Assembly (NCBI GenBank): GCA_013812505.1
Contig: JACCTH010000036.1
Coordinates: 39,957-103,956 of the forward strand
DNA length: 64,000 nt
Direction of reading: 5' to 3'
DNA from: Acidimicrobiia bacterium
Lineage (GTDB): Bacteria > Actinomycetota > Acidimicrobiia > Spongiisociales > ZC4RG35
The position numbers were made by a program, and so were the translations under genes. This document shows, in pieces, positions 37,425-55,300 of the stretch (within the stretch, counting starts at the first letter, position 1; the number at the start of each line of letters is the position of its first letter). The notes below the pieces were generated by a model that was given only the letters and a program-made list of their open reading frames with translations, made no database searches and was not told where the DNA came from.

Positions 37425-37612
37425 ATTTCGGCCGGACCGCGGAGTTGCCTGATCAACTCATCAGTGGGAGCCGGGAGACGAATGATCCCGAAGACGTCAT
37501 CCACCGGGTCCACCGCGCTGACCTTGGTCGCGACCAGCCTGCCCTCCTCTTCGGCGAAATCGAGTATCTCGCCTGGCAGAATTCCCAGGCTGTCCCGTAT
37601 CTGAGCCCATTC
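37421..37612 (-). pseudogene. vapB: 5'-truncated AbrB/SpoVT-type antitoxin (vapB remnant)
   Basis: The frame reading ..EWAQIRDSLGILPGEILDFAEEEGRLVATKV...LRGPAEM* ends in ATGTGA, overlapping the vapC GTG. Upstream in that frame, a TAG (plus cta 37613..37615) lies inside repeat B copy 2. No ATG/GTG/TTG precedes the AbrB-like core. Confidence 0.55.
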
Positions 37613-37656
37613 CTAAGGCGATTTTGGTGGCTATGCAACCACCCAAACCTTAGGTT
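37610..37656. repeat. 47-nt palindromic element, family B copy 2
   Basis: ttcctaaggcgattttggtggctatgcaaccacccaaaccttaggtt. Differs from copy 1 at about 5 positions. Confidence 0.85.
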
Positions 37657-37701
37657 CGGGTTTGGTCACGCCGCGGAACGTTGAGTTTCTAGCCTGGGCC
37701 G

Positions 37702-38847: not shown

Positions 38848-40148
38848 GCCATTTCTGGTGTGAAGCTGCCTGGATCGGCGGCGCCATCAGCGAAAAAGTG
38901 CTGATCGAATGCGACGAGGCGGGGACCATCGCCGCGATCGAAAATATCGCGGTTTGTCCGCCATTCGCGACGGCCGTTCCCGGTTTGACTTTCCCCGGCT
39001 TCGCTAATACCCACTCGCACGCTTTTCATCGCGCCCTCCGGGGACGCGTGACTCAAGACTCATTTTGGAGATGGCGCGATGCCATGTACGAGTTAGCCGC
39101 CAGACTCGATCCCGAGAGTTACCTGCAACTCGCAACCGCCGTGTTCGCCGAGATGGCGCTCGCCGGGTTCACAGTCGTCGGCGAGTTCCACTACCTGCAT
39201 CATCAGGCCGGAGGTCGTCCGTACGACGACCCCAACGCCATGGGTAATGCCCTGACCGGGGCTGCGAAGGCCGCAGGCATAAGACTGACGTTGCTCGACA
39301 CCTGCTATCTCCAGGGCGGACTCGGAAAGGAGCTCTCGCCACCGCAACGACGATTCGCCGACGCCGACGTTGACGACTGGGCGAGACGCCGAGCCTTGCT
39401 CAAAGGGTACGCACGGGGGCAGATCGGAGCGGCGATCCACTCGGTCCGGGCAGTGCCTCGGGAGGCGATGTCCGAAATCGCGGCCGCGGGTCGAGGAGGC
39501 CCGCTCCACATCCATCTCTCCGAGCAACCGGCCGAGAATCAGCAGACTCTTGCAGCACATGGGATGAGCCCAACCGCGCTCTTGGCCAAAGAAGGGGTCT
39601 TGAGCGAAGACCTCACCGCGGTCCATGCCATCCATCTCGAGGCAGAGGACATCGCGCTGTTGTCCTCGAGTGGAGCAACAGTTTGCGCCTGTCCAACGAC
39701 CGAAGCCGACCTCGGCGATGGCATTGGGCCCTTCGCCGAGCTTCACCGCCAAAAGGTCTCCTTGACGATCGGGACCGACCAACACGTCTTCATCGACCCG
39801 TTCCTCGAGATCCAGCGGCTGGAGATGGATCAACGTCTGTTGACCAGGCAGCGGTCGGTGTTCAACGTCCGCGAGCAGATCGACGCCTTGACCCAGCATG
39901 GCTACCGGGCGCTCGGGTGGACGAACGGCGGCCTCCTCGAGGTCGGCGCTCTTTGCGACCTCACCTCGATGAAGAACGACTCGGTACGGACCGCGGGCGT
40001 TCCCTTAGCCGAGAAAGCGTCTGTGGCCTCGGCAGTCGACGTCGAAACGGTGGTCGTCGGCGGCCGGGTCGTCGTTGCCAGTGGTCAACACGTTTTGGGA
40101 GAGATCCCGGCGTTGCTCAGGGAGGCAATCGATCCGCTATGGGGATAG
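38844..40148 (+). CDS. hutF: formimidoylglutamate deiminase
   Basis: GTG 38844 overlaps the preceding TGA. Amidohydrolase-fold metal motif PGFANTHSHAFHRALRG. The length (434 aa) and body resemble HutF. Confidence 0.7.
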   Translation: MSHFWCEAAWIGGAISEKVLIECDEAGTIAAIENIAVCPPFATAVPGLTFPGFANTHSHAFHRALRGRVTQDSFWRWRDAMYELAARLDPESYLQLATAVFAEMALAGFTVVGEFHYLHHQAGGRPYDDPNAMGNALTGAAKAAGIRLTLLDTCYLQGGLGKELSPPQRRFADADVDDWARRRALLKGYARGQIGAAIHSVRAVPREAMSEIAAAGRGGPLHIHLSEQPAENQQTLAAHGMSPTALLAKEGVLSEDLTAVHAIHLEAEDIALLSSSGATVCACPTTEADLGDGIGPFAELHRQKVSLTIGTDQHVFIDPFLEIQRLEMDQRLLTRQRSVFNVREQIDALTQHGYRALGWTNGGLLEVGALCDLTSMKNDSVRTAGVPLAEKASVASAVDVETVVVGGRVVVASGQHVLGEIPALLREAIDPLWG

Positions 40149-41232
40149 CGGCGGAGGCGACTGCCCGGGCTCGGGCCGAGGTTCTGGCGAGAAGTTGTTC
40201 GAGGGGTCCCCGACCCACGAATTGCGCCCAAATCCAGCCGGCGACGAAGGCGACGAGAACATGAACGACGAGCAGCCGCGGCCGTTCTTCGATGCCCGCC
40301 CGCGTCGCCAGCGCGAGTACGTGAATCGTGTAAAGGCTCAGGGTCATTGCCCCGACCGCGGCCAACCAACCCAAGACCCGAACGATCAGCAGTGCCCCTC
40401 CCACCACAAACAAGGAAGTGCCAATCGTGTGAAGGAGATCCAGCGGCGTCGCAGAGTGAGGCGTGGCCACCGCGAGATAGAGGACAGAATCGGTCGGAGT
40501 CACTCCAAAGAATTGGATAGGAAGGTCGCCGAGTCGATTGCCCACGAGCAGGTTGGAGACGACGGGGCTGACGATGGCCAGCGCTCCGCCCGCGAGGGCA
40601 AGTCGTCGCGCCACCTTGCTCGAGGTGAGATCGAGACGCCCCACCGCCAACCCCGTCCAGATATAGCCCAGCCAGGGGATCACCGGGTAATAGCCCGTCA
40701 GCAAGAGTTCCCTTAACAATGTGATCGGTTGGAGGAGGGCGGTGAAGTTCGGCTGCAGAAACGTCGTCTCCGGCAACACCGTGCGGGCGAAGTGACTGGC
40801 AACCGGCACGACCACCACCCAGATCGCGGCCACCCATAACAGGCGGCGGATGCTCCACCCGAGGCCGATCGTCGATAAGAGGAATAGGAGGGCATAGTTG
40901 ACGAGAATGATCGCCACTCCGGAGTCGAGCTCACCGAGGATCAACCCGATCAAAGCAAGGATTGGGACCCGGGCAAGGACTCCGACGCGAGCCGCCCGCA
41001 GCGCCGTCCCATGCGGTGGATTCTGACGTCCGTTAGCGAGCGCCAGACCAATGCCGGCCACCACGGCAAAGAGCGCTGAGGCGCGGCCGGAAGCAAGCAG
41101 GTAGGCCAAAGACGTCGACTCGTCGGCGTCGCGCGAGGGGAGAATATGAACCGCCATCATCCCGATCAGGGCTAGGCCCCTCGCCGAGTCGATCCCGTAG
41201 AGACGGGTTCCGGCCAGCGACGATGTGGTCAC
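40117..41232 (-). CDS. polytopic membrane protein, DUF1624/DUF418 (acyltransferase-like) family
   Basis: GTG start. The N-terminal motif RLYGIDSARGLALIGMMAVH is typical of the family. 3' end overlaps hutF by 32 nt (convergent). Confidence 0.55.
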   Translation of the reverse strand: MTTSSLAGTRLYGIDSARGLALIGMMAVHILPSRDADESTSLAYLLASGRASALFAVVAGIGLALANGRQNPPHGTALRAARVGVLARVPILALIGLILGELDSGVAIILVNYALLFLLSTIGLGWSIRRLLWVAAIWVVVVPVASHFARTVLPETTFLQPNFTALLQPITLLRELLLTGYYPVIPWLGYIWTGLAVGRLDLTSSKVARRLALAGGALAIVSPVVSNLLVGNRLGDLPIQFFGVTPTDSVLYLAVATPHSATPLDLLHTIGTSLFVVGGALLIVRVLGWLAAVGAMTLSLYTIHVLALATRAGIEERPRLLVVHVLVAFVAGWIWAQFVGRGPLEQLLARTSARARAVASAAIPIADRLPP

Positions 41233-41264
41233 TAAGTGAGGCTACCGGGCTAGGGTTTTCGTTC

Positions 41265-42794
41265 ATGACCTCTGGGAAAAGGGGGATTCTGCTCGCCCTG
41301 ATCGCCTTGCTCGCCACCCTGAGTGGCGGTAGCCAGCCAGCTGGTGCCGAGCCCGGTGTGGCCGTCGCGACCGACCGGATCCTGGCGGGTGTATATGCGC
41401 CGCAGCAGTGGTTTTCCGCCGACCACATCCTCGCTCTCAACGCGGCGTCGGGGAAAAACGTCTCGATCGGAGGTCTCTGGTTCGACGTCGATGAGCCCCC
41501 GGCCAACGTCCATTACATGCTCGACGAGATTTGGTCGGCCGGCGCCACGCCATTTGTCAACATTCACGTGGCAGTGACGGCGGCGGAGGTAGCCGCCGGG
41601 GCGGTGGACGATCACATCTCAGCCATGGCCTCGGCGGTGGACGCCTGGTTGGCCAAGGGAGGTGGCCGGTCGGTGATGCTGGCGCCGATGCCGGAGATGA
41701 ATGGGGATTGGATTCCCTACGGGATGACTCCGACTGACTTCATCGCCGCGTATCGCCATTTCGTCTCGGTGGCATCGCAATCGGGCGCCACCTTCTGGCG
41801 TGTTCGCTGGGTCTTCGCCCCCAATGGGTGGTCGGCTCCTCCCTATCACATGGCCGATTACTACCCCGGCGCCGATGTTGTCGACCTCGTCGGGATGTCC
41901 GCCTACAACTGGGGATCAGCTCAGGTTGGGGCTTACTGGACGACGGTCGAGCAAACCATGGGCGGCGCCCTCGACGAGGCCCGTGGCTTCGCTCCCGAGA
42001 AGCCTTTCTTGGTTTCGCAAACGGCCAGCTCTCCGTTTGGTGGCGACAAGGATGCCTGGATCAGAGATTTGTTCGCCTATCTGGCGGATGATCCCAACGC
42101 CGTCGGCTTCATCTACTTCAACATAGAAAAGGAACACGATTGGTCGATGTTCAAGGGAGGACTGGTGGCTCCGGGCTGGCGGGATGGGATGAATTTCGAA
42201 ACGACGGTCTACCAGTGGCCGCTCGACGATTGGTTCCAGCCCGGGATGCTGACGGTCGACACCTACTTAACTCCCTTCGACGGCACCTTCTCCGACGACG
42301 ACTCCTCGGCCTTCGAGGAGGACATCGAATGGCTCTACTCGAGCGGGATCACGACGGGTTGCGCGGCTACCTTGTACTGCCCGGCGAGCCCGGTTACGCG
42401 GGGCCAGATGGCCACTTTCCTGTCGAGGGCCCGCGGGCTCCCACCTCCCACGGCCGACTATTTCGCCGACGATGCCGGTTCGCCCTACGAGTCGAGTGAC
42501 AATCAGGTCAAGGAAGCCGGGATATCCAACGGCTGCTCAGCCACCGCTTTCTGTCCTAACGCTCCCACGACGCGTGAGCAGATGGCTTCGTTCCTGGTCC
42601 GCGCGCTGCAGCTCCCCGCCTCCACCTTCGACTACTTCGGCGACGACGAAGGGTCGATCCATGAGGCCGATATCAACGCGCTCGCCCAGGCGGGGATCAC
42701 CAGCGGCTGCACGGCAACGACCTACTGCCCCGGTGCCTCCGTTACGCGCGAACAGATGGCGGCCTTCCTCCATCGAGCCCTAGCCCCGACCTAG
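41265..42794 (+). CDS. secreted GH26-like glycoside hydrolase with three C-terminal SLH-like repeats
   Basis: Signal peptide ILLALIALLATLSGGSQPAGA. Catalytic-domain pattern WVFAPNGW...YYPGADVVDLVGMSAYNWG. Three copies of about 55 aa of F.DD.GS..E.DI..L...GIT.GC....YCP...VTR.QMA.FL.RAL. Confidence 0.5.
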   Translation: MTSGKRGILLALIALLATLSGGSQPAGAEPGVAVATDRILAGVYAPQQWFSADHILALNAASGKNVSIGGLWFDVDEPPANVHYMLDEIWSAGATPFVNIHVAVTAAEVAAGAVDDHISAMASAVDAWLAKGGGRSVMLAPMPEMNGDWIPYGMTPTDFIAAYRHFVSVASQSGATFWRVRWVFAPNGWSAPPYHMADYYPGADVVDLVGMSAYNWGSAQVGAYWTTVEQTMGGALDEARGFAPEKPFLVSQTASSPFGGDKDAWIRDLFAYLADDPNAVGFIYFNIEKEHDWSMFKGGLVAPGWRDGMNFETTVYQWPLDDWFQPGMLTVDTYLTPFDGTFSDDDSSAFEEDIEWLYSSGITTGCAATLYCPASPVTRGQMATFLSRARGLPPPTADYFADDAGSPYESSDNQVKEAGISNGCSATAFCPNAPTTREQMASFLVRALQLPASTFDYFGDDEGSIHEADINALAQAGITSGCTATTYCPGASVTREQMAAFLHRALAPT

Positions 42795-42816: not shown

Positions 42817-42860
42817 GACGTTGTTGTACAACGCTGCGAACCCAGGGTTCGCAGATTTTA
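42817..42860. repeat. family C palindromic element, copy 2
   Basis: gacgttgttgtacaacgctgcgaacccagggttcgcagatttta. Contains the perfect 21-nt palindrome ctgcgaaccc-a-gggttcgcag. Lies between convergent stops at 42794 and 42858. Confidence 0.85.
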
Positions 42861-44072
42861 GGAGGCGTAGATCTGGAGATCGGTCCCGACGCGGTCGGCC
42901 AGCTCGGTGCAGACACGGAGATCCGGATGGCGGACGACGACCATGCCGTCCCCGATTAGTTGCTGCTTCCAGTTGCGCCGGGAAGCCCCGATCGGGTTGA
43001 GCTCGGTGGCGACAATCCAGGGCTCCAACTCCGCTAGCAACCGGTCGAGGCCCTCGTAGCGTTGGATGTGGCCCTGGCCGATCGCCCGTTTGAAGACCGT
43101 CACAGCATTGAACTTGCGATCCAAAGGCTCGCTCAGCTGGCCGTGGACGGTCGCCTCCGCCCAGCAGCGGAAAAGATCGACGTCAGAAGCGAAGTTCATG
43201 GCGTCGACAGTGCGGCCGCCCGGGGGGCGCGCTCCGATCTCGCCAAACACAGCTTCCCCGTCCGACTTGAGGTACCACTCCATATGTGTGAAGCCGTCGC
43301 GAAAGTTCATGGCCTTAAGCACCTGGACTCCCATCTGCTTGCCACTGGCGAGCTCGGCTACATCCGGATTGCGCAGCGCGAGCGTCTGCTGGCTGACCCA
43401 CTCATTGGTTTTCCCGAGCAGTGGCCGGGGGCGGTACCAGCAGATGTTGTAGAAGAGGACGTTGCCGTTGGCACAAATGGTGTCGAAGGTGAACTCCTCG
43501 CCGTCGACGAACTCCTCGATGCTCACCTCCTCGATGTGGCGAAGGGAAGGAGCGATTGCCTCGACGTCGGACGGGCCATCGACTCGGTGGGTGTCGATGG
43601 ACCCTGCTCCGGAGATCGGCTTGATGATCGCCGGATAGCCGACCTTCTCAAGCGCATCCCAAATACCTCCCATGGTTTTGGCTGAGTAATGGTGCGGCGT
43701 CCTGATCCCAGCGCTGTCGAGAACTTGCTTCATCGCCTCTTTGTCGCGGAAGGGAATGGTTTCGAGCTGCGTCATGCCGGCGATCCCGAGCGCCTCTCGC
43801 ACTTGCGCGGCGAGGATCATCAACGGCTCCCACAGCGATTCGACTCGGTCGATCCGGACTTGTCGGGAAATAGCCGCGGCCGTTTCGATGACCGACTCCG
43901 GCCGGGAAAAGCTCACTTGGTAGTAGGCGGACAACGCCATCCGCGCCTTTGGCGGCACCGCTCCTTCAGCTTGATCTCCGAGTCCGATCACATTGGCCCC
44001 CACCTCGGCCAAGCCGCGCACGAAATCGGTCATCTCCGTAGGGAACCCCGGCGAGAGAAAGAGGATGTTCAT
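42858..44072 (-). CDS. ATP-grasp ligase, paralog A (404 aa)
   Basis: Start at ATG 44072 (MNILFLSPGFP), by analogy with the paralogs. Motifs GYPAIIKP, EEFVDGEEFTFD, HMEWY and GEIGARPPGG are typical of the ATP-grasp fold. The 18 extra codons in the track ORF read through the heptad array. Confidence 0.75.
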   Translation of the reverse strand: MNILFLSPGFPTEMTDFVRGLAEVGANVIGLGDQAEGAVPPKARMALSAYYQVSFSRPESVIETAAAISRQVRIDRVESLWEPLMILAAQVREALGIAGMTQLETIPFRDKEAMKQVLDSAGIRTPHHYSAKTMGGIWDALEKVGYPAIIKPISGAGSIDTHRVDGPSDVEAIAPSLRHIEEVSIEEFVDGEEFTFDTICANGNVLFYNICWYRPRPLLGKTNEWVSQQTLALRNPDVAELASGKQMGVQVLKAMNFRDGFTHMEWYLKSDGEAVFGEIGARPPGGRTVDAMNFASDVDLFRCWAEATVHGQLSEPLDRKFNAVTVFKRAIGQGHIQRYEGLDRLLAELEPWIVATELNPIGASRRNWKQQLIGDGMVVVRHPDLRVCTELADRVGTDLQIYAS

Positions 44073-44079
44073 GGGGGAA

Positions 44080-44164
44080 GATGCGAGATGCCAGATGCCA
44101 GATGCCAGATCGATTCTGTGCCGCAAGGGATCTGGAATCTGATATCTGGAATCTGGAATCTCAT
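44080..44164. repeat. inverted repeat built from tandem 7-bp units (heptad array 2)
   Basis: gatgcga gatgcca gatgcca gatgcca gatcgat - 15-nt spacer - atctgga atctgat atctgga atctgga atctcat. The CCAGAT units on the left are complementary to the ATCTGG units on the right. Fills the 88-bp gap between ATP-grasp B (stop 44161) and ATP-grasp A (start 44072). Confidence 0.9.
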
Positions 44165-45381
44165 CCGAGTGCCACTTTCACGTTCGCAACAATTGCTCTG
44201 ATCGCTTCTTCAACCCGAGCCGTCTCCGGGTGACGGACGATCACATAGCCCTCGCCCTCGTAGTGGCCGGTGGGTGACTGGCCTGTCTCGGGAAGTTTGA
44301 TCTCGACGACCATCCCGGCTGCCGTCTCCTGCGCTTTCTCCAAGCCGCTGATGCCGACCACCTGACCTTTGCCCTGCCCTCGCAGATATGCGGCACCGAC
44401 CGCGTACTGCCGCGGCGGCGGGTCGAACTCCTGATAAATCATCAGCTTCGCCCAGTCCCGGTAGAGGTCAAAGTCATGCGCATAGGAGATCAAGGTCGAG
44501 AACTGCGCGCCGGGTGGACGTACCGCCGCCTCCGAGATCGCGATGGAGCCGTCCGGCCGGCGAAACCACTCCATGTGGACCAAGCCGGTTTGCAAACCGA
44601 GGGCGGTGATGGCCGCTGGCCCCGCCTCGCTGATCTGGGCGTACTCGGGCCCGGAGATGTCCCGTGGCAGCACCACCGACCATTGGATCCAGGCGTTTTC
44701 CATCACCTGGAGCGGGGTTGGGTAGTAATTGGAGATGTTCCACCAAACCGGTTGGCCCTTGACAAAGACGCAGTCAAACGCGTGCTCGTCGCCGGTCACA
44801 AATTCCTCGAGCAGCGTCGGATTCTCCATCGAAGGAGGTGACCAGCGCAGCCACGACTCGACCTGGCCGGGCTCGTTGAGCCGGAAGGTATTGCGGGTGC
44901 CCGAACCTGAGGGCGGTTTTGCAACTACCGGCAGGCCGATGGCGTTGATGAACTCCCAGGCGGCGTCGGTCGAGCCGACCAGCCGATGGCGCGCGCAGGG
45001 GAGTCCATGCGCGGACAGGACCTTCTTCATGCGGTCTTTGTCTCGGAAGTTGCGCGCCGTCTCGACATCCACTCCGTCGACCGAAAGCGCCACCCGCACT
45101 TGTGCCATTGGCACCTGCAGCTCTTCCAGCGGACCGAGGATCCGATCGACTCCGCCGAGTTGGCCGGCAATCGCGGTTACCGCCTTGTGGAGCTGGTCAG
45201 GGTCGAGGGCATTCTCCACTTGGTAGTGGGCTGCAAGGTGAGGACGCACCTCGTTCGGGATCTTCTGGGCCGGATCGGCGCTCACCAGGCCCAGCACTAC
45301 TCCCGGCGTGGTGGCGGCGGCAGCGATGAAGCGTGAGGTCGTGGGGAGGAAATAAGGAGCAACGAACACGACCGCCGGCAC
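44161..45381 (-). CDS. ATP-grasp ligase, paralog B (about 406 aa)
   Basis: Start proposed at GTG 45381 (MPAVVFVAPYFLP), which aligns with the paralog N-termini. Motifs GLPVVAKP, EEFVTGDEHAFD, HMEWF, EAAVRPPGA. Confidence 0.75.
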   Translation of the reverse strand: MPAVVFVAPYFLPTTSRFIAAAATTPGVVLGLVSADPAQKIPNEVRPHLAAHYQVENALDPDQLHKAVTAIAGQLGGVDRILGPLEELQVPMAQVRVALSVDGVDVETARNFRDKDRMKKVLSAHGLPCARHRLVGSTDAAWEFINAIGLPVVAKPPSGSGTRNTFRLNEPGQVESWLRWSPPSMENPTLLEEFVTGDEHAFDCVFVKGQPVWWNISNYYPTPLQVMENAWIQWSVVLPRDISGPEYAQISEAGPAAITALGLQTGLVHMEWFRRPDGSIAISEAAVRPPGAQFSTLISYAHDFDLYRDWAKLMIYQEFDPPPRQYAVGAAYLRGQGKGQVVGISGLEKAQETAAGMVVEIKLPETGQSPTGHYEGEGYVIVRHPETARVEEAIRAIVANVKVALG

Positions 45382-45469
45382 AGCGGCACGGTAGTCGCAG
45401 CCTTCGAACCATGTCTTGGAAGCAATCACAGTGCCCGCCGTGACAGAATCAGCCAAAAGGATCAAGCCA

Positions 45470-46906
45470 ATGAAAGTGCTGTTCGTCTCCGCAGAGGTAG
45501 CGCCCTATTCGAAGACGGGCGGCTTGGGCGATGTGGCGTCAGCCCTCCCCGGGGCTCTCGAACGAATGGGTCATGAGCTCACCGTCGTGAGCCCGATGTA
45601 TCGCCGGGTCAGCGACGGCGCGCACCGTCTGCATGATGTTTATCCCGAGATCCCGATTCCTGCCATCGGGGCACGATTCGACGCCATCCTGGCCGACGAC
45701 GGTCGCAATTGGTTCGTCGACTATCCGCCTTACTTTGGCCGCGAGGGGATCTATCGAAACGATGGCGACGAGCACAGTCGCTTCCTGCTCCTTACCCACG
45801 CTGCCCTCGAGCTGTGCCGCAGGCGGGGATGGTCCCCTGACATCGTTCACGTCAATGACTGGCACACCGGCTTCATGCCGCTCTTTCTGCGCAGCATCTA
45901 TGGCTCGGACCCCCTCTTCGCCCGAGCGCAATCGGTCTTCACGATTCACAACCTCGGCTACCAGGGCGTCTTCGGTTCCCACATTGTTGACGACCTCGCC
46001 CTCGGCTCGAGCAGGTATTTGCTCCACCAGGAGCATCTGCGTGCCGGCCGGGTGAGCTTTATGGAGCACGCCCTCATCTATTCGGACGCCATCACCACGG
46101 TCTCACCGACTTACGCCTACGAGATCCAAACCCCCGAGCACGGATTCGGGCTCGACGCGATGCTGCGTCATCGATCCCGAGACGTCTTTGGAATCCTCAA
46201 CGGCATCGACCCCGAGGTCTGGAACCCCAGCTCCGATCCTTATCTCCCCTCTCCTTACTCCGCATCCGAGCTCGAAGGCAAGCACGCCAACAAGGCTGCC
46301 CTCTTGGCCCGAGCCAGGATCGACCCCGATCAGGGCTTTTTGACGGTGGGGATTGTCACCCGGCTCTCGGCCCAAAAAGGGATCGAGATTGCCCTGCGCC
46401 CCCTGGCCCGGAGGCTCGACGCCGGACATATCCGCTTGGTGGTCCTGGGCTCCGGCGAACGGCGCTACGAGGAGGCATTTGGCTGGCTGGCGGCGGCTTT
46501 TCCCGGCCGCGCCCATTTCCAGAACGGGTACGACGAGAGCATGGCTCACCTCATCGAAGGCGGCGCCGATGTATTCCTGATGCCCTCCCTCTATGAGCCG
46601 AGCGGTCTCAACCAGATGTACAGCTTGGCGTATGGGACGCCACCGATCGTGCGCCGGACGGGAGGGCTGGCCGATTCGGTCACTCACTACGATCCCGCCC
46701 GCGGGGAAGGGACGGGCTTCGTCTTCGATCATTACTCCGAAGGGGGCGTCGGTTGGGCGCTTGATCAGGCCCTCACCCTGTTTCAGAACAAAGCCCAGTG
46801 GCAAATACTGCAACGCAATGGAATGGCCGAAGACAACTCTTGGGAGCGGCGGGCCCTCGAGTATGACCGTATCTATCGCCGGGTAACGGGAGAGGAACAG
46901 CCGTGA
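45470..46906 (+). CDS. glgA: glycogen/starch synthase (GT5, ADP-glucose type)
   Basis: MKVLFVSAEVAPYSKTGGLGDV (KTGGL motif), NDWHTG, PSLYEPSGLNQMY, 478 aa. Start at ATG 45470 with aaaagg upstream. Confidence 0.9.
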   Translation: MKVLFVSAEVAPYSKTGGLGDVASALPGALERMGHELTVVSPMYRRVSDGAHRLHDVYPEIPIPAIGARFDAILADDGRNWFVDYPPYFGREGIYRNDGDEHSRFLLLTHAALELCRRRGWSPDIVHVNDWHTGFMPLFLRSIYGSDPLFARAQSVFTIHNLGYQGVFGSHIVDDLALGSSRYLLHQEHLRAGRVSFMEHALIYSDAITTVSPTYAYEIQTPEHGFGLDAMLRHRSRDVFGILNGIDPEVWNPSSDPYLPSPYSASELEGKHANKAALLARARIDPDQGFLTVGIVTRLSAQKGIEIALRPLARRLDAGHIRLVVLGSGERRYEEAFGWLAAAFPGRAHFQNGYDESMAHLIEGGADVFLMPSLYEPSGLNQMYSLAYGTPPIVRRTGGLADSVTHYDPARGEGTGFVFDHYSEGGVGWALDQALTLFQNKAQWQILQRNGMAEDNSWERRALEYDRIYRRVTGEEQP

Positions 46907-48123
46907 ATGTCATCTTCGTCGAACCAAGCTTTCCGAGCTACCAGCGCGAGTTCGCTCGGGCTTTGAGCGCGGTCGGGGCGACTGTGATCGGGATCGGTGA
47001 GCGGCCGAAGGACTGGCTCGATCAAGAGGTCGCCGGCTGGCTGACCCATTACGAACAGGTGCGATCCGTCGTGGACGTCGATGCTCTTGAAGCTGCCGTG
47101 CGCGGGGTTCAACAGGCGGTCGAGGTGAATCGATTGGAAGCCACGATCGAAGCCCACGTCGAGGCGGCCGCCCAGGTGCGGGAGCGATGCGGGATTCCCG
47201 GCACTTCCGTGCGAACCGCCTACTTGTGCCGGGACAAGCCGGCAATGAAGGAGGCGCTGCGGCAGATCGGAGTTCCCACCGCGCAATCGGCCGGCGCCGA
47301 CAGCGCCGAGGAGCTCTTCGGCTTTGCCCACGCGGTTGGCTATCCGCTCATCATCAAGCCTCGCAGCGCAGCCGGCGCTTCCGGCACCGTCCGAGTCCAC
47401 AGCGACGACGAGCTGGCGGCGGCCATCCCCAGTCTCGGATTCCATTGGGGCCAGTCGGTGGCGGTGGAGGAGTTCATCGAGGGTCACGAGGGCTTCTATG
47501 ACACGATCTCGATCGACGGTCAGCCTGCGCACGAGTTTATCTCCCACTACTACCCCAACGTTCTTGAGGCGATGCGGACTCGATGGATCTCGCCGGTGTT
47601 CATCACCACCAATCGGATGGACGCCCCCGGTTATGACATTGTCAAGGCGCTCGGTCGTCAAGTCATCCCCGCCCTGGGAATCGACACCTCCGCCACCCAC
47701 ATGGAGTGGTTCTACGGGCCGAAGGGCTTAAAATTCTCCGAGATCGCCTGCCGCCCACCGGGAGTCGGCGCCTGGGATCTCTATTGCGCGGCGAATGACC
47801 TCGACGTGTATCAGGAATGGGCAATGGCGGTTTGTTGGGGCAAGGTCTCCCGACCTGCCTCGCGCCGGTACTCAGCCGGGATCATCGCTTTGCGGCCGGA
47901 TCGGGATGGGACCATCACCGGTTACGAGGGCATGGGCGAGGTGCAGCAGCGATATGGGCGCTTCATCATCGACTATCACCTCCCGCCCCCCGGCACCGGC
48001 ACACAACCGGTGGAGGCGGGCTACATGGCCAACGCCTGGATCCGGATGAAGCACGAGGACTACGACGAGCTGCGCAACATCCTCAACCACGTTGGTGGGG
48101 TTGTCCAGGTGCGAGCCAACTGA
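46903..48123 (+). CDS. ATP-grasp ligase, paralog C (406 aa)
   Basis: GTG 46903 overlaps the glgA TGA (GTGA). MNVIFVEPSFP, GYPLIIKP, EEFIEGHEGFYD, HMEWF, SEIACRPPG. Confidence 0.75.
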   Translation: MNVIFVEPSFPSYQREFARALSAVGATVIGIGERPKDWLDQEVAGWLTHYEQVRSVVDVDALEAAVRGVQQAVEVNRLEATIEAHVEAAAQVRERCGIPGTSVRTAYLCRDKPAMKEALRQIGVPTAQSAGADSAEELFGFAHAVGYPLIIKPRSAAGASGTVRVHSDDELAAAIPSLGFHWGQSVAVEEFIEGHEGFYDTISIDGQPAHEFISHYYPNVLEAMRTRWISPVFITTNRMDAPGYDIVKALGRQVIPALGIDTSATHMEWFYGPKGLKFSEIACRPPGVGAWDLYCAANDLDVYQEWAMAVCWGKVSRPASRRYSAGIIALRPDRDGTITGYEGMGEVQQRYGRFIIDYHLPPPGTGTQPVEAGYMANAWIRMKHEDYDELRNILNHVGGVVQVRAN

Positions 48124-48127
48124 ATAG

Positions 48128-49213
48128 ATGGGCTCACCGCCGGTCCTCGATCAGCTCCGCCATGCCGACGCGTCGGCGATCGATCGCTTCGTCGACGATC
48201 ACAAGTTCCCGTTGGTCGAGCCCGGACGGGCGATCTTCCTCTTTCGAGGCCGGGCCGACGCGGTCCACCTTAAGCCGATGATGGCGGGGTTTCCCGGACG
48301 CCACGGCTTCGATCGGCTCAATGGGCACGATCTCTGGTACCTCGAGCTGCCCTTGCCCGACGGCGCCCGTCTCGAATACAAGCTCGAGGTGCAGCGCGAT
48401 CATCACGCCGATTGGGTCAATGATCCGCTCAACCCCCTCACCAGCACGAACCCTTTTGGGACCAACTCGGTCTGTCGCGGTTACGGGTATCTGGTGCCCG
48501 ACTACGCCGAGGTTCATGCCGGGACCCCGACCGGCTCATTCTCCGATCGCTGGGTGAGATCACGGCTCGGCGGTGAGCGCAAGCTCACGATGTACACCCC
48601 GGCTGGCTACGACTCGTCGCGGAAATATCCGCTGTTGTTCATTCACGATGGCGGCGACTACCTCACCTATGGCTCGATGGCGCTCGTGCTCGACAACCTG
48701 ATACACCGTGGGGTCATCCCGCCGGTGATCGGTGCTTTCTCCTGGCCGGGTGATCGCCTCCACGAGTATGCCGCCAACGAAAATCAGGCCCGTTTTGTCG
48801 TCGAGGAAGCGCTTCCCCGAATCGAAGAGGACTACGACCTGGGTACGAAGGTCGTCATCGGAGCGAGCCTCGGGGCAGTGGCCGCGTTACACACCGCTTG
48901 GCGACATCCTCACGTGTTCGGCGGGCTCATGATGCAGTCGGGGACCTTCGCCCAAACCCGGGGATGGGGATCGGCCCAGCACCTCCTCGGGCCGATCGCC
49001 GACCTCCTCCATCGTCTACAACCTTCGCTGCTGCCGCGGCGGGTCTTCATCTCCTGCGGCACCTACGAGCGGATGATCGGAGAGAACCGATTCATGGCCC
49101 ACCGCCTTGAGCGAGCCGACCTTTCTGTCAAATATGTCGAAAGCCGGGACGGTCACACGTGGGAGGCGTGGCGTGACCGGCTGGCGGAAGGTTTGGCCTG
49201 GGTCTTGACGTGA
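48128..49213 (+). CDS. esterase (enterochelin-esterase/esterase-D-like, with an N-terminal beta-sandwich domain)
   Basis: N-terminal about 120 aa (..WYLELPLPDGARLEYKLEV..) followed by the hydrolase core with PLLFIHDGGDY and the nucleophile elbow GASLGA. Confidence 0.6.
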   Translation: MGSPPVLDQLRHADASAIDRFVDDHKFPLVEPGRAIFLFRGRADAVHLKPMMAGFPGRHGFDRLNGHDLWYLELPLPDGARLEYKLEVQRDHHADWVNDPLNPLTSTNPFGTNSVCRGYGYLVPDYAEVHAGTPTGSFSDRWVRSRLGGERKLTMYTPAGYDSSRKYPLLFIHDGGDYLTYGSMALVLDNLIHRGVIPPVIGAFSWPGDRLHEYAANENQARFVVEEALPRIEEDYDLGTKVVIGASLGAVAALHTAWRHPHVFGGLMMQSGTFAQTRGWGSAQHLLGPIADLLHRLQPSLLPRRVFISCGTYERMIGENRFMAHRLERADLSVKYVESRDGHTWEAWRDRLAEGLAWVLT

Positions 49214-49833
49214 CTGTCGTCACCGATCAGAACCCAGGTCCGCCCACCTTGCTGCCGATCACGCTCGCCGGCCACCACGTCACTCTGCGCCCGCCCCGAC
49301 AAGGTGACGCTGAACCGCTCTACGCCGATTCGCACGCTCAGCCGGAGCTGGTCTGGACCTACATGAGCTACGGACCTTGGCCCGATCGTGACGCTCTTGC
49401 CGACTGGGTCGGCGAAAGGGTCAGTTCGGTGGACCCGCTCTGGTTCACAGTCGTCGACAATCATCGCCAAACCCCGGTCGGGATGGCGACCATGCTGAAC
49501 TACGATCCCGTGCACCGGCGGCTCGAGCTCGGCCATATCTGGTACGTGGTCTCGGCTCAGGGCACTTTCGCCAATACCGAAGCCGCCTACCTGCTGTTGC
49601 GACACGCTTTCTGGGACTACCGGGCGCGGCGGGTGGAGTGGAAATGCGACTCTCGCAACGAGCGATCGCGGGCCGCGGCCTTGCGGCTCGGCTTCAGATT
49701 CGAGGGCATCTTCTCCCAGCACATGATCGTCAAAGGCCTCAACCGCGACACAGCTTGGTTTGCGATGACAGACAGCGAATGGCCCGAGGCGGCGGCCCGC
49801 ATGGAAGACAGGCTCTACCAAAACGACCGCTAG
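49210..49833 (+). CDS. GNAT N-acetyltransferase (RimJ/RimL-like)
   Basis: GTG overlaps the esterase TGA. The pattern LRPPRQGD...ELGHIWY...GTFANTEA..LLLRHAF...RVEWKCDSRNERSRAAALRLGF is typical of acetyltransferase_3-type GNATs. Confidence 0.7.
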   Translation: MTVVTDQNPGPPTLLPITLAGHHVTLRPPRQGDAEPLYADSHAQPELVWTYMSYGPWPDRDALADWVGERVSSVDPLWFTVVDNHRQTPVGMATMLNYDPVHRRLELGHIWYVVSAQGTFANTEAAYLLLRHAFWDYRARRVEWKCDSRNERSRAAALRLGFRFEGIFSQHMIVKGLNRDTAWFAMTDSEWPEAAARMEDRLYQNDR

Positions 49834-49880
49834 GTTTCTCCGCCCCTCCGGGGGGAGTGACAGGCTGCCACACTTAGGAC

Positions 49881-50468
49881 ATGGCGCATGTTTCCAAGTT
49901 CCTGGTCAAGCAACGAATCACGATGATGGTCAACCGCTATGAGGTCCGCGAGGCGAACGCGGATGGTTCCGAGGGTGCCCTGCTGGCCTTCGCGCAGCAG
50001 AAGCGGATGCAGTTCAAAGAAGAGGTCAACTTCTACGCCGACGAGGGACGTACCCAGAAGCTCTTCTCGTTCAAAGCTCGCCAGGGATTGGACGTCCGCG
50101 CCGAGCACGATGTCTTCGACGAGCACGGCAATGCGATCGGCTACTTCAAGAAGGAGTTCGCCGCCAGCTTGCTCCGTTCGACCTGGCAGATGTCATACGC
50201 CGGCGTGAACACAAGGGGCCAAGAGCGCAACGAACTCATCGCCATTCTCAGGCGGATCTGGGAATGGATCCCCGTCGTTGGCGACATTTGGATCCCCTTC
50301 CTGTTCCACTTCGACTTTGTCGACCAGGCGACCGGCGAGCAGGTGATGAGCAGCGAACGCAAAGTTGCGATTCGCGACCGGTACGTCGTCCACGTCCCCG
50401 ACTCCCGCCTCGACTTCCCAGTCGCCGCCTCGATGGCGGTCGCCCTGGATGCCCTCCAAAGCCGCTAA
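49881..50468 (+). CDS. LURP-one-related/DUF567-like (tubby C-terminal-like fold) protein
   Basis: 195 aa. Tentative family resemblance only (..KQRITMMVNRYEV...F.FK......V.D..G..IG...K.). Confidence 0.4.
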   Translation: MAHVSKFLVKQRITMMVNRYEVREANADGSEGALLAFAQQKRMQFKEEVNFYADEGRTQKLFSFKARQGLDVRAEHDVFDEHGNAIGYFKKEFAASLLRSTWQMSYAGVNTRGQERNELIAILRRIWEWIPVVGDIWIPFLFHFDFVDQATGEQVMSSERKVAIRDRYVVHVPDSRLDFPVAASMAVALDALQSR

Positions 50469-50573: not shown

Positions 50574-52513
<1,940 letters not shown>

Positions 52514-52538
52514 CTAACCCTCCTGTCTAGTGAACGAG

Positions 52539-52565
52539 TTAGCACTCGCCTCTTGGGAGTGCTAA
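52539..52565. promoter_or_regulatory. CIRCE operator (HrcA binding site), proximal copy
   Basis: ttagcactc-gcctcttgg-gagtgctaa is a perfect match to TTAGCACTC-N9-GAGTGCTAA. 26 nt upstream of the groES ATG. Confidence 0.9.
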
Positions 52566-52573
52566 CGACAAAT

Positions 52574-52600
52574 TTAGCACTCGCCGAGAGTGAGTGCTAA
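52574..52600. promoter_or_regulatory. CIRCE operator, distal copy
   Basis: ttagcactc-gccgagagt-gagtgctaa, also a perfect consensus. 8 nt from the proximal copy. Confidence 0.9.
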
Positions 52601-52612
52601 TTGCCCCGATTC

Positions 52613-52665
52613 CGTTTTCGCTACCAAAGCGGCACTTCGGAGGTGCCGATTTGGTGATAAAAACG
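52613..52665. repeat. 53-nt palindromic element, family A copy 3 (degenerate left arm)
   Basis: cgttttcgctaccaaagcggcacttcggaggtgccgatttggtgataaaaacg. Lies between the tsaD stop (52670) and the groES control region. Confidence 0.8.
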
Positions 52666-52669
52666 TTGT

Positions 52670-53674
52670 TTACCCGAGACGGCGGCCGGGATCGACTGTG
52701 GCCGTCCAGTCGCTCAGGTCTCCCCGTTCGAGGTGTAACAACGCAGCGACGCCGATCATGGCGGCATTGTCAGTGCAGAGCTCGGGTCGCGGCAGGCAAA
52801 CCTTGACTCCCCGCGCTGTGGCTTCCTCGGTCAGGCGGGCTCGCAGCCGGCGGTTGGCGATGACCCCACCCCCCGCCCCGAGAACCTTGACCCCGGTGTC
52901 GGCGACGGCCCGCATCGTCTTTTGGACGAGCACATCAACAATCGCCTCCTGCACCGAGGCGGCGACATCGGCCAGCGGCGGCAGCTCACCCGCCGCCTTG
53001 GCCTTGCGCACAAACGTCGCCACCGAAGTCTTGAGTCCGGAGAAGGAGACGGCGTAGGGGCGATCAGCTAGCGCGCGCGGGAAGGCCACCGCGGCCGGGT
53101 CGCCGTCCTCGGCAGCCAGATCGATCGCCGGTCCACCCGGAAACCCGAGGCCCAGGAGGCGAGCGAGCTTGTCAAACGCTTCCCCGGCGGCGTCATCGAT
53201 TGTCTCGCCCATCACCCGGTACTCCCCCCAATGGCTCACGTGCACGATCTGGGAATGACCGCCCGAGGCGAGCAACACCACCGCTGGCGGAGCAAAGTCC
53301 TCGAACTCGAGACGCGGCGCCATCAAATGACCCTCCATATGGTCAACCCCAACGAAGGGCAGTTGACGAGCCCAGGCCGTAGCCTTGGCAAACGAGTGGC
53401 CGACGAGGAGCGCGCCGACCAACCCAGGCCCATTGGTTGCCGCCACCGCATCAAGGTCGGCGGGATGGACGCCGGACTCGACCAGCGCCTTGTGAGTGAG
53501 CGGCCGGATCGACTCGACATGAGCTCGCGCCGCCACCTCCGGCACCACCCCCCCGAACCGCGCATGGAGGTCGACCTGCGATGACAGCACCGAGGACAAC
53601 ACCTCCGTCCCGCGCACAACCGCCACCGCGGTCTCGTCGCAACTCGTTTCGAAGGCGAGGATCAACGGGTTCAC
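52670..53674 (-). CDS. tsaD: tRNA N6-adenosine threonylcarbamoyltransferase
   Basis: ILAFETSCDETAVAVV, VDHMEGHL. GTGA overlap with rimI. Conserved tsaE-tsaB-rimI-tsaD order. Confidence 0.9.
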   Translation of the reverse strand: MNPLILAFETSCDETAVAVVRGTEVLSSVLSSQVDLHARFGGVVPEVAARAHVESIRPLTHKALVESGVHPADLDAVAATNGPGLVGALLVGHSFAKATAWARQLPFVGVDHMEGHLMAPRLEFEDFAPPAVVLLASGGHSQIVHVSHWGEYRVMGETIDDAAGEAFDKLARLLGLGFPGGPAIDLAAEDGDPAAVAFPRALADRPYAVSFSGLKTSVATFVRKAKAAGELPPLADVAASVQEAIVDVLVQKTMRAVADTGVKVLGAGGGVIANRRLRARLTEEATARGVKVCLPRPELCTDNAAMIGVAALLHLERGDLSDWTATVDPGRRLG

Positions 53675-54168
53675 GAAGCGACCTCGACGCCCGCCCTGAT
53701 CGAGTCGAGACGTTCCGAGTATTCAGGCCGATCGATGTCGTGGACCCACATGATCAAGGCGTCCTCGTCGCGGTAGTAGCGCTTGCGGATCCCCACCGGC
53801 GCCATCCCGAACTTGGTGTAGAGCGACTGCGCATTCTTGTTCGACGCCCGAACTTCGAGCGTGAGGCTGCGGGCTCCCGCTTCTCGGGCCTCGTCGGCGA
53901 GGGCGAGCATGAGGCGGGTGCCGATCGCCCTGCCGCGTTGGGCGGGATCGACTGTGAGAGAGGTGATGTGAGCCTCGGGCAGCACCAACATCACACCGCC
54001 GTACCCGACCACCGCCCCTTCAGCCTCGGCGACGAGATACTCCCGGCCGGAGGCGACGAGCTCATCGAGAAAGATCGTCTCCGTCCACGGCATCGAATAC
54101 GTCTGCTCTTCGATCACGAGGCACCGCTCGATGTCGCCTTGGGTCATTCGGCGGACTAGCTCGACCAC
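53671..54168 (-). CDS. rimI: ribosomal-protein-alanine N-acetyltransferase
   Basis: GNAT motif QRGRAIGTRLMLAL. Sits between tsaB and tsaD. Confidence 0.8.
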   Translation of the reverse strand: MVELVRRMTQGDIERCLVIEEQTYSMPWTETIFLDELVASGREYLVAEAEGAVVGYGGVMLVLPEAHITSLTVDPAQRGRAIGTRLMLALADEAREAGARSLTLEVRASNKNAQSLYTKFGMAPVGIRKRYYRDEDALIMWVHDIDRPEYSERLDSIRAGVEVAS

Positions 54169-54860
54169 GGGCTCTCCGGATTGAGCTTTTCCCAGTTGAG
54201 GGAGACATCGGGCTCGCGGAGATAGAGCGGGACCGCGCTATCGGAATGAAAGTTGTCTCGCTCGAGCTTGGACATCCCGATCTCGAGCAGCGCTCGCACC
54301 GACGGGTAGCGCGGTCGACCGGTCTTAACCCGGTGCTGACCTCGCAAAACCCACTCGGGGATGCCGGCGGCGTCTCCCACCACCAACGGATCGCTGGGGT
54401 CGGACATGAGTTGCTGCTGCAGCCGATCAGGGGTGAGCAGCACAGGCTCGCTGCTCCGGACCACGCCTCCGGGGACAGGTCGATAGGTGGCGACCGCCAG
54501 CTCACCCCGGCGAACATCAACGACGGAGTAGATGTGACGATGACCTGTCGTCGCCGCTAGAGCTTGGGCATCGAGCGAGATCGCCGTGAGTAGTGGTATC
54601 CCAAGCGCCGAGGCCATCCCTTGAGCGACTGCGATCCCGACCCGGATGCCGGTGAAGAGACCAGGCCCGACATCGACGACGATGGCGTCAAGCTCGTCGG
54701 GAAACCAGCCTGCTTGATCAAGGGCGAAGTCGGTCGCGGAGACGACAAAGCCGGCATGCCCGGTGCGATCAACCCGGGTGGCCGTGGCCATCACCTGGCG
54801 ATCCTCGGCGAGGGCCACAGCCGATTGGGCTGTGGCAGTTTCGATCGCCAGCAGCTTCAA
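54156..54860 (-). CDS. tsaB: tRNA t6A biosynthesis protein TsaB
   Basis: MKLLAIETAT..., GPGLFTGIRVGIA. Confidence 0.85.
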   Translation of the reverse strand: MKLLAIETATAQSAVALAEDRQVMATATRVDRTGHAGFVVSATDFALDQAGWFPDELDAIVVDVGPGLFTGIRVGIAVAQGMASALGIPLLTAISLDAQALAATTGHRHIYSVVDVRRGELAVATYRPVPGGVVRSSEPVLLTPDRLQQQLMSDPSDPLVVGDAAGIPEWVLRGQHRVKTGRPRYPSVRALLEIGMSKLERDNFHSDSAVPLYLREPDVSLNWEKLNPESPWSS

Positions 54861-55300
54861 ATTGCTTCGCTCTCTAAGCGATCGACCCAGCTCCCCTGTG
54901 GGCTGAAGGTGACGATCCGGCTCGAGTCGTCGGCGACCTCGAAGTCGATTCGGAGATGGTCGGCAGGCAGGAAATCTACGACGACATCACCCCACTCCAC
55001 CACCAACACGCCGGGCTCCCCCCAGAGATCGAGATCCTCGAATTCGTGCTTGGAGCGGAGCCGGTAGACGTCGGCGTGGACGAGGGGGATGAAGCCCGAC
55101 CGATAACGCCGGACGAGGACGAACGACGGACTGGTAACTGGCTCGTCCACCCCGAGCCCCATAGCAACTCCCCCGGTGAACAGGGTCTTGCCGCAGCCGA
55201 GCTCGCCGCTCAAGACCAGCACATCTCCAGGTTTCAGGCGGGAGGCGAGAAGCCCTCCCAACCGAGCTGTATCGGCCGGCTCTTGGCAAACCACCGTCAT
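54857..55300 (-). CDS. tsaE: tRNA t6A biosynthesis ATPase TsaE
   Basis: Start at ATG 55300 (MTVVCQEP..), overlapping the UDG stop (ATGA). P-loop LSGELGCGKT. ..HADVYRL. The 104 upstream codons of the track ORF are rejected. Confidence 0.85.
   Translation of the reverse strand: MTVVCQEPADTARLGGLLASRLKPGDVLVLSGELGCGKTLFTGGVAMGLGVDEPVTSPSFVLVRRYRSGFIPLVHADVYRLRSKHEFEDLDLWGEPGVLVVEWGDVVVDFLPADHLRIDFEVADDSSRIVTFSPQGSWVDRLESEAI

Follow-up and report, generated by a model that had tools for sequence, protein, structure and literature searches.

What role might ligases of the ATP-grasp superfamily play beside a glycogen synthase? Bacterial glycogen metabolism is considered essentially complete, with GlgC, GlgA, GlgB, GlgP, GlgX and the GlgE route as its components. 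The question is raised by a gene cluster in a 64,000-nucleotide stretch of an Acidimicrobiia genome (GenBank assembly GCA_013812505.1, contig JACCTH010000036.1, positions 39,957 to 103,956; hereafter the window), in which the gene for a GlgA-type synthase lies among those for three paralogous ATP-grasp ligases (AG1, AG2 and AG3) and a serine esterase (Est). We present evidence that this arrangement is probably one instance of a widely conserved and hitherto undescribed system, in which an ATP-grasp and esterase gene neighborhood is coupled to glycogen synthesis.

The cluster occupies positions 42858-50468, and all seven open reading frames (ORFs) of the original prediction, which was made from the letters of the window, are present at the coordinates it gave and in the divergent arrangement that it described:

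42858-44072, minus strand: AG1, ATP-grasp ligase paralogue 1; 404 aa from the ATG at 44072 (longest ORF to the TTG at 44126)
44079-44161: two heptad arrays (Tandem Repeats Finder, RNA fold)
44161-45381, minus strand: AG2, ATP-grasp ligase paralogue 2; 406 aa from the GTG at 45381 (longest ORF to the TTG at 45465)
45382-45469: divergent intergenic region between AG2 and glgA, containing CGTGACAGAATC (alignment with six Acidimicrobiia relatives)
45470-46906, plus strand: GlgA, glycosyltransferase family 5 (GT5) ADP-glucose-type glycogen synthase; 478 aa from the ATG at 45470 (TIGR02095, PF08323, PF00534)
46903-48123, plus strand: AG3, ATP-grasp ligase paralogue 3; 406 aa, GTG start (AlphaFold2 (AF2) model, Foldseek)
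48128-49213, plus strand: Est, two-domain serine esterase (PF00756, AF2 model, Foldseek)
49210-49833, plus strand: RimJ/RimL-type GCN5-related N-acetyltransferase (GNAT); GTG start (PF13302, PDB sequence matches)
49881-50468, plus strand: hypothetical protein of 195 aa; lineage-specific, its membership in the system doubtful

The genes are closely spaced. A shared tetranucleotide, GTGA at 46903-46906 (ccGTGAatg), joins the glgA stop to the AG3 start, 4 nt separate the AG3 stop from the ATG of Est, and the Est stop and the GNAT start share a further GTGA at 49210-49213; both overlaps had been predicted and are borne out by the sequence. The intergenic gaps of the cluster measure 4-88 nt, leaving no room for a carrier protein or other small ORF, and GlgA, AG3, Est and GNAT are apparently translationally coupled within one operon. 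GC content is uniform across the window at 61-65%, the cluster is flanked by a gene with glycoside hydrolase family 26 (GH26) and S-layer homology (SLH) domains on one side and by groEL on the other, and the nearest relatives are metagenome-assembled genomes of Acidimicrobiia. Inspection of the N-termini by eye, with no predictor run, revealed no signal peptide in the cluster proteins; hence, they are probably cytoplasmic, as is glycogen.

With their starts trimmed by homology, AG1, AG2 and AG3 are 404-406 aa long, and in BLASTP AG1 aligns end to end with AG3 at 31% identity (E=1e-60), while AG2 shares 29% identity with AG3 and 30% with AG1 over the full length (E of 6e-54 and 9e-58 among these pairs). 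Each is matched by several ATP-grasp Pfam models (ATP-grasp_4, ATP-grasp_3 and ATPgrasp_N in AG1; ATP-grasp in AG2, which alone adds a weak LAL_C2 match at 17.5 bits against a cut-off of 29.4), and with the fold of the AG3 model this places all three in the ATP-grasp superfamily, as three paralogues of the size originally described. The shared motifs G[YL]P..[IA]KP, EEF[VI].G.E..[FY]D, HMEW[FY] and E[IA]..RPPG are indeed present in all of them, but the predicted MN[IV][LI]F N-terminus is restricted to AG1 and AG3; AG2, judged by homology to the N-termini of these two, most likely starts at the GTG at 45381 and reads MPAVVFVAPYF. In an alignment of 26 sequences including AG1 and AG2, K152-P, E189-E190-F, H-M-E268-W and E280...R284-P-P-G are invariant. 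These we take, from general knowledge of the fold, to be the ATP/Mg-binding residues; thus, all three paralogues look catalytically competent.

The AF2 model of AG3 (predicted local distance difference test score, pLDDT, 89.7) superposes on ATP-grasp enzymes, with the L-amino-acid ligase RizA (4wd3) as the best Foldseek match (TM-score 0.78/0.81, 19% identity). RizA is followed by BL00235 and BacD (identities of 14-19% among the three) and then by PurT, PurK and biotin carboxylase. Sequence comparison by phmmer likewise recovers RizA 4wd3 (2.4e-14), a second entry labeled 'L-amino acid ligase', BacD and BL00235 as the closest solved relatives, in keeping with the type originally assigned. Like AG3, RizA, BL00235 (3vot) and BacD/YwfE (3vmm) combine a three-domain ATP-grasp fold with a C-terminal LAL-type domain (TM 0.75-0.81), and they conserve the same ATP/Mg-site motifs. 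They differ from the cluster ligases in that the identity is only 14-19%, the curated models are not passed, three paralogues are co-inherited, AG3 is conserved at a housekeeping level, and the partners are glycogen enzymes rather than antibiotic genes.

Every cluster protein belongs to a known superfamily except the unmatched 195-aa product, and GlgA alone reaches a curated family. For AG1-3, the scores lie far under the cut-offs of all NCBIfam models matched: 25-27 bits against 850 for BacD (NF053745), 22-23 against 840 for DdaF, 17-31 against 502 for purT, 26-27 against 318 for purK, 25 against 288 for purD, and 17-30 against 1027 for the large subunit of carbamoyl-phosphate synthetase (CPS). 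The cyanophycin synthetase models give 29-38 bits against 850-877, TIGR02068 itself 29-34 against 850, and the alignment is confined to some 90 residues of the ATP-binding subdomain; the cut-offs for Ddl, RimK and LysX are likewise unreached, AG1-3 have no TupA-type Pfam match, and none of the cluster proteins has a Mur-type domain. A search for informative domain fusions among the AG3 relatives in a library of 1.84 billion proteins yielded none, the long matches being without meaningful extra domains and resembling frameshifted or chimeric gene calls.

These scores bear directly on the alternative that the ligases are ordinary PurK-, PurT- or CPS-like enzymes. JGI auto-annotation does label AG3 homologues 'GAR transformylase', 'NCAIR synthetase' or 'carbamoylphosphate synthase large subunit', and PurT and PurK are second-tier structural matches; however, purT, purK, purD and CPS models score 16-40 bits against cut-offs of about 290-1030, and the labels are a mis-annotation. 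The question whether the ligases belong to a known housekeeping family was raised at the outset, and they fall into none.

In contrast to the ligases, GlgA passes TIGR02095 comfortably (492.8 bits against 328.45), matches PF08323 (2e-72) and PF00534 (2.6e-14), i.e., a GT5 N-domain and a GT1 C-domain, and carries the motifs SKTGGLGDV, EPSGLNQMY and RRTGGLADSV. It falls narrowly under the cut-off of the more specific equivalog NF001899 (444 bits against 459). On these matches, GlgA is a canonical GT5 ADP-glucose alpha-1,4-glucan synthase, as its KTGGL motif had suggested.

Is the linkage of such a synthase to the ligases peculiar to this genome? We surveyed one genome per GTDB species and kept the best 80 of more than 576 loci returned, identifying neighbor genes by tblastn with the window proteins together with a GC3-based gene caller; many of these loci end at contig ends, and 44 of them, here termed fully flanked, extend 6 kb or more to either side of AG3. 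The 80 loci span at least ten phylum-level lineages: Acidimicrobiia and other Actinomycetota, Myxococcota, Planctomycetota, Gemmatimonadota, Acidobacteriota, Dormibacterota, Eisenbacteria, Krumholzibacteriota, Binatia, and Alpha- and Gammaproteobacteria. Est accompanies AG3 in 59 of the 80 loci, GlgA (scored within 8 kb of AG3) in 50, AG1 in 42 and AG2 in 40; among the fully flanked loci the figures are 41 for Est, 29 for AG1 and 28 each for AG2 and GlgA. In seven phylum-level lineages AG3 follows GlgA on its strand, the aligned regions lying no more than 105 nt apart, and in most Myxococcota the two are divergent neighbors. The linkage of glgA, ligases and esterase thus recurs across phyla and is not unique to the window genome.

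The observation that no glgB, glgC or glgP lies nearby holds throughout the 64-kb window, but other phyla carry GlgB within the ligase operons and GlgC or GlgP in their vicinity: GlgB occurs in nine loci, GlgC in four and an alpha-glucan phosphorylase in three. GlgB directly follows AG2-AG1 in a planctomycete (L011), an Eisenbacteria member (L026), a Binatia member (L046) and locus L083, in the last of which the AG1 and GlgB stop and start overlap. The cluster thus shares with the classical glycogen operons (glgBXCAP; the GlgE pathway) a bona fide GlgA and, in other phyla, co-located GlgB, GlgC and phosphorylase; unlike it, no described glycogen pathway includes ATP-grasp ligases.

The maintenance of adjacency through repeated rearrangement argues for a functional link rather than inherited synteny, and we regard a functional coupling of glycogen synthesis with the ligases and the esterase as quite probable. 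Chance synteny with glgA, the other form of the ordinary-enzyme explanation, sits poorly with three paralogues that travel together and with an adjacency of GlgA, GlgB and Est that persists through rearrangements in many phyla. A PurK/PurT/CPS housekeeping role and chance adjacency are both effectively refuted by the model scores and the conserved neighborhood, and we find this explanation barely credible.

Sequence identity is 42-98% within AG1, 39-98% within AG2 and 57-99% within AG3, and 26-40% between the groups, indicating that these are three anciently separated orthologue groups. The window AG3 retains 63-70% identity to its orthologues in nine or more other phyla, compared with 42-61% for AG1, 40-58% for AG2, 33-51% for GlgA and 36-47% for Est. 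As AG3 alone is so conserved, a recent horizontal transfer of the cluster does not explain the pattern; AG3 evolves slowly by its own nature, in our judgement at the level expected of core-metabolism or complex-forming proteins. Its homologues number in the thousands, the top 120 being still at least 67% identical, and in a library clustered at 50% identity only 225 AG3 representatives remain at E<=1e-30.

The most constant partner of AG3 is Est, which matches PF00756 (1.8e-20, 74 bits against a cut-off of 22). Its AF2 model (pLDDT 93.4) comprises an N-terminal E-set domain of the CBM48/Enterochelin_N type and an alpha/beta hydrolase of the carbohydrate esterase family 1 (CE1)/esterase-D type; in Foldseek both domains match Fes (TM 0.71-0.75), and the CBM48-CE1 feruloyl and acetyl-xylan esterases score about 0.62. 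S247 of the GASLG motif and H343 are invariant in 34 Est homologues. With its GxSxG motif, His and N-terminal E-set domain, Est has the features of a PF00756 esterase of the CE1/esterase-D/Fes type, and the predicted Fes/esterase-D-like identity is upheld by the two-domain structural match; against the enterochelin esterase Fes equivalog (NF007758), however, it scores 81.8 bits, with a cut-off of 222. Est shares its two-domain architecture, GxSxG and His with Fes and the CBM48-CE1 esterases, but it is only about 20% identical to them, is apparently cytoplasmic, has no siderophore or xylan genes nearby and has AG3 as its constant partner. The N-terminal domain is recognized as Enterochelin_N in 33 of the 34 homologues (best 1.5e-7) and weakly as a carbohydrate module in fewer (CBM_20 in 11, best 0.018; CBM_48 in four, best 2e-4). 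The motif EYK..V...W..DPLNP...DPFG.NSV resembles, by eye, an AMPK-beta type module, and glucan binding by this domain is possible.

In other phyla, the same core of AG1, AG2, AG3 and Est, with GlgA, is embedded in a larger cluster, of which, by gene content, the window carries a reduced, Acidimicrobiia form. In most of these phyla, an S51-like gene lies between AG3 and Est (50 loci; e.g., L026:9230-10189). Its product has only weak matches to Peptidase_S51 and PepE; its GGH is invariant, and it retains an FHD motif and a Glu. Just six of 16 members have the canonical catalytic His, and the nucleophile Ser is replaced by Cys or Ala in three of the 16; on these grounds we rejected it as a classical cyanophycinase or PepE. 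The S51 fold is also that of class I glutamine amidotransferases, and by analogy a pairing of the S51-like protein with an ATP-grasp enzyme as an amidotransferase, in the manner of carbamoyl-phosphate synthetase, is conceivable. A second module follows Est (L026:12101-17158, L083:17023-21224 and about 40 other loci) and draws on these components:

Downstream of Est, 43 of 80 loci: fourth ATP-grasp protein, divergent, RimK/LysX-like, with no Pfam match
Downstream of Est, 36 of 80 loci: second, shorter esterase (Est2), PF00756, 250 aa
Downstream of Est, 12 of 80 loci: GCS2 carboxylate-amine ligase fused to two CBS domains
Downstream of Est, 13 of 80 loci: AstE/AspA-like metallohydrolase

The GCS2 count would be higher with the inclusion of the Dormibacterota versions that lack CBS domains. 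Est2 weakly resembles polyhydroxyalkanoate (PHA) depolymerases, and a GGACT enzyme is an occasional extra. None of the S51-like, fourth ATP-grasp, second esterase, GCS2-CBS and AstE-like genes is found in the 64-kb window.

What might the ligases do for a glucan? ATP-grasp enzymes phosphorylate a carboxylate, which is then attacked by an amine, thiol or hydroxyl. By analogy, one of the cluster ligases would activate an amino acid or related acid by phosphorylating its carboxylate and pass the acyl group to a hydroxyl of the growing glucan to form an ester, the same chemistry as that of the D-Ala-D-lactate ligase. The remaining two would extend the attached residue by amide bonds at its free amine, the product being an aminoacyl- or peptidyl-decorated glycogen. 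Est would hydrolyze the ester and thereby strip the decoration upon mobilization of glycogen; in this lineage only, the RimJ/L-type GNAT would acetylate the free alpha-amine as a cap. An amino-acid or peptide decoration of a glucan, as suggested in the original prediction, gives every component a role; we put forward this specific chemistry of decorating the nascent alpha-glucan tentatively, as a possibility that we would not yet call likely.

A precedent for coupling a polymerizing glycosyltransferase to an ATP-grasp ligase is offered by Cj1438 of Campylobacter jejuni, in which a GT2 polymerizing glycosyltransferase is fused to a TupA-like ATP-grasp amidoligase that decorates its polymer by activating the C6 carboxylate of glucuronate in the capsule and adding serinol or ethanolamine (PMC11800379). 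In the window, by contrast, the polymer would be a neutral cytoplasmic alpha-glucan, such that the carboxylate must come from the incoming acid; moreover, the ATP-grasp subfamily differs, as reflected in the lack of a TupA-type Pfam match, and the genes are separate rather than fused. The wider claim, that in many phyla glycogen is covalently decorated with amino acids or short peptides by the ligase trio alongside GlgA and GlgB and that the decoration is removed by a CBM48-type esterase, strikes us as rather unlikely. If true, it would establish the modified glycogen as a storage polysaccharide of a new class, perhaps one that holds both carbon and nitrogen, and would give L-amino-acid-ligase-like enzymes a new type of reaction, the formation of an ester on a sugar hydroxyl.

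Several points weigh against such a decoration. An alpha-glucan offers hydroxyls only and no carboxylate, and hence an ester on a sugar hydroxyl must be postulated; we know of no enzyme of the L-amino-acid-ligase type that esterifies a sugar hydroxyl, and aminoacylated glycogen has, to our knowledge, never been reported. The putative link of any of the ligases to a glucan substrate is drawn from gene context. Of the fully flanked loci, 16 of 44 are without a GlgA within 8 kb of AG3, and AG3 occurs by itself in some genomes; the neighbors of these solitary copies (IMPDH, TPR, acyltransferase, NADAR) are unrelated and thus give no clue to function. Further, Est is structurally closer to Fes (TM 0.71-0.75) than to the CBM48-CE1 esterases (about 0.62), and Fes cleaves the seryl ester bonds of a depsipeptide, not a glycan ester. 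Lastly, the S51-like, GCS2-CBS, AstE/AspA-like and RimK/LysX-like extras of the larger cluster suggest peptide or amino-acid chemistry rather than that of sugars.

Much of this evidence could instead be accommodated if the cluster made a separate peptide-type reserve compound or osmolyte, such as a cyanophycin-like polymer, an oligopeptide or a depsipeptide, from free amino acids, with its genes co-regulated with those of glycogen, i.e., a co-regulation of carbon and nitrogen reserves. Est would then degrade the product, helped in other phyla by the S51-like and AstE-like enzymes. The ligases are indeed nearest to enzymes that join free amino acids and match, if weakly, the ATP-binding part of cyanophycin synthetase. 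The S51-like (cyanophycinase/PepE family), GCS2-CBS, AstE/AspA-like and GGACT genes of other phyla fit as well, as do the resemblances of Est to a seryl-ester-cleaving enzyme and of Est2 to PHA depolymerases, and the many loci without GlgA. The overlap of GlgA with AG3 and the abutting or overlapping of AG1 with GlgB tell against it, since such packing usually denotes one pathway or complex and not mere co-regulation. The comparison with the cyanophycin system (CphA1 and CphB) is instructive here: it too pairs an ATP-grasp enzyme with an S51-family protein, as do most non-Acidimicrobiia loci, and serves a reserve polymer, but the match of the AG proteins is limited to the ATP-binding subdomain, the Mur-ligase-like domain typical of cyanophycin synthetase is lacking, the S51-like protein is without a conserved catalytic His (and, in three of 16 members, without the Ser), and its gene is absent from the window. 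On balance, we hold a separate reserve to be the main rival explanation, albeit a doubtful one.

A further clue lies in the C-terminus of Est. Outside Acidimicrobiia (L008-L080; e.g., L026:10219-11334), it ends in a conserved tail, ...LSWLFPGPL[WM][MFL][VI]YE, which is present in nearly all loci with the S51-like gene and missing where that gene is missing, the window included. The tail may serve in docking or offer its C-terminal Glu as an acceptor. The latter would fit another explanation, in which the ligases modify a protein in the manner of RimK or the tubulin-tyrosine ligases, be it GlgA, GlgB, Est or a glycogen-granule protein, and the hydrolases reverse the mark. Consistent with this, the tail with its terminal Glu adjoins a RimK/LysX-like ATP-grasp gene, the identity of AG3 across phyla, which exceeds those of GlgA and Est, fits a constraint by macromolecular partners, and translational coupling with GlgA fits a stoichiometric complex. 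However, the nearest counterparts of AG1-3 themselves are the L-amino-acid ligases and PurT/PurK rather than RimK, LysX or the tubulin-tyrosine ligases; the window Est has no tail; no carrier protein or small ORF fits the gaps between the genes; and the C-termini of GlgA, AG1, AG2 and AG3 are neither conserved nor acidic. Protein modification is accordingly an improbable account to us, and its most direct form, a RimK-like modification of the GlgA C-terminus, was rejected on the variable, non-acidic C-termini of GlgA and the ligases.

The GNAT encoded after Est, matched by PF13302 (Acetyltransf_3; 3e-20, 73.7 bits against a cut-off of 25.4) and, in the PDB, by 3tcv (1.5e-34), 3pzj and the RimJ/L-family entries 2z0z and 8gxk, is of the RimJ/L type originally proposed, although it stays under the equivalog cut-offs for RimJ, RimL and SpeG. 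A weak match to MccE among the PDB sequence search results touches on yet another explanation, namely that the product is a secondary metabolite, for instance a dipeptide antibiotic or siderophore-like trilactone, with the Fes-type esterase and the GNAT serving in processing or self-resistance: dipeptide antibiotics are products of BacD and RizA, siderophores are substrates of Fes-type esterases, and RimL/MccE-type GNATs detoxify aminoacyl compounds. Yet the conservation of one gene set over at least ten phyla, in which AG3 keeps 63-70% identity, is unlike secondary metabolism, and the constant partners are glycogen genes; no transporter, receptor, or nonribosomal peptide or NRPS-independent siderophore (NIS) synthetase was noticed in the cluster or among the recurrent neighbors, where no dedicated search was made. 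A siderophore or antibiotic cluster was rejected on this conservation pattern, and we regard a secondary metabolite as highly improbable.

Two genes of the original prediction are peripheral. GNAT occurs in six of the 80 loci, all from close Acidimicrobiia, and the 195-aa gene at 49881-50468 in five. As both are limited to these close relatives, they are not part of the conserved system, contrary to what had been proposed. Nor did the label 'LURP-one-like' given to the 195-aa product survive: it matches no Pfam family, PF04525 included, and no PDB sequence at E<=10.

The single heptad array predicted between AG2 and AG1 on the minus strand proves to be two, 44079-44110, (AGATGCC)x4.6 in the phase (GCCAGAT)n, and 44130-44161, (ATCTGGA)x4.6, 19 nt apart (Tandem Repeats Finder), which are reverse complements of each other and lie between the AG2 stop and the AG1 start. 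In the minus-strand mRNA they pair as an imperfect hairpin, some 30 bp long (-37.6 kcal/mol, z = -1.98), whose end lies about 10 nt short of the AG1 start codon. No second copy of the pattern is found in the window, and the arrays are absent from a relative that is 96-97% identical (L023) and from L001, in both of which AG1 and AG2 abut; they are an insertion unique to the window genome. Upstream of glgA, the sole invariant non-coding block in the window and six Acidimicrobiia relatives is CGTGACAGAATC at 45439-45450, likely a -10-type promoter element of the glgA operon. It ends 6-7 nt before the glgA start codon in five of the aligned Acidimicrobiia genomes, a spacing consistent with a -10 box from which a leaderless glgA mRNA would be transcribed; a 14-nt insertion, AGCCAAAAGGATCA, shared by the window and L023, adds a Shine-Dalgarno-like AAAGGA. 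A promoter and terminator scan gave results no better than those from shuffled sequence.

Around the cluster, we noted several further genes. A membrane acyltransferase gene of the HGSNAT/DUF1624 type (40117-41232, minus strand) adjoins AG1 in close Acidimicrobiia relatives (seven of 80 loci), and in the window genome and L023 the GH26-SLH gene (41223-42794) sits between the two. The region 35323-40148 holds a homologue of the MttB-family trimethylamine methyltransferases (35323-37002, 643 bits) followed by genes for an M20 peptidase and an amidohydrolase, both of which are also found upstream in L001 and L005. On the other side, the minus-strand block at 50574-55908, comprising groEL, tsaD, a TsaB-like gene, tsaE and a gene of the uracil-DNA glycosylase family, is ordinary housekeeping synteny common to the relatives.

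Has a system of this kind been described before? Iyer, Abhiman, Burroughs and Aravind reportedly predicted amidoligase gene-neighborhood systems in 2009. Those neighborhoods resemble the present cluster in joining ATP-grasp or GCS2-type ligases with peptidases or esterases, for which the addition of amino acids to metabolites, proteins or glycans was predicted. A metazoan relative in spirit is C7orf58, a secreted fusion of an ATP-grasp (TTL-like) domain with a PC-esterase that Anantharaman and Aravind (2010, PMC2824669) predicted to add amino acids to surface polymers. Unlike the present cluster, however, none of these predictions includes a glycogen synthase, as far as checked. The term ATP-grasp is absent from a comprehensive 2024 article in Chemical Reviews that surveys prokaryotic alpha-glucan enzymes (PMC11046441). 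Searches of the literature for the pairing and the gene set found no account of ATP-grasp ligases with glgA or glgB and no characterized pathway that combines GlgA with L-amino-acid-ligase-like enzymes, in agreement with the original prediction; the 2009 catalog, which was outside the coverage of these searches, may list part of the set.

The ligases and the esterase are thus tied to glgA or glgB in soil and sediment lineages such as Acidimicrobiia, Myxococcota, Gemmatimonadota, Planctomycetota and Dormibacterota. The conserved linkage, together with an AG3 that is more conserved than GlgA itself, argues that an unrecognized and strongly selected activity accompanies glycogen synthesis in these bacteria. 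Identification of this activity, be it the modification of the polymer, the making of a second reserve compound or a regulatory mark on a protein, would add a new element to the biology of storage polymers and would supply the function of a protein family whose unannotated members number in the thousands.

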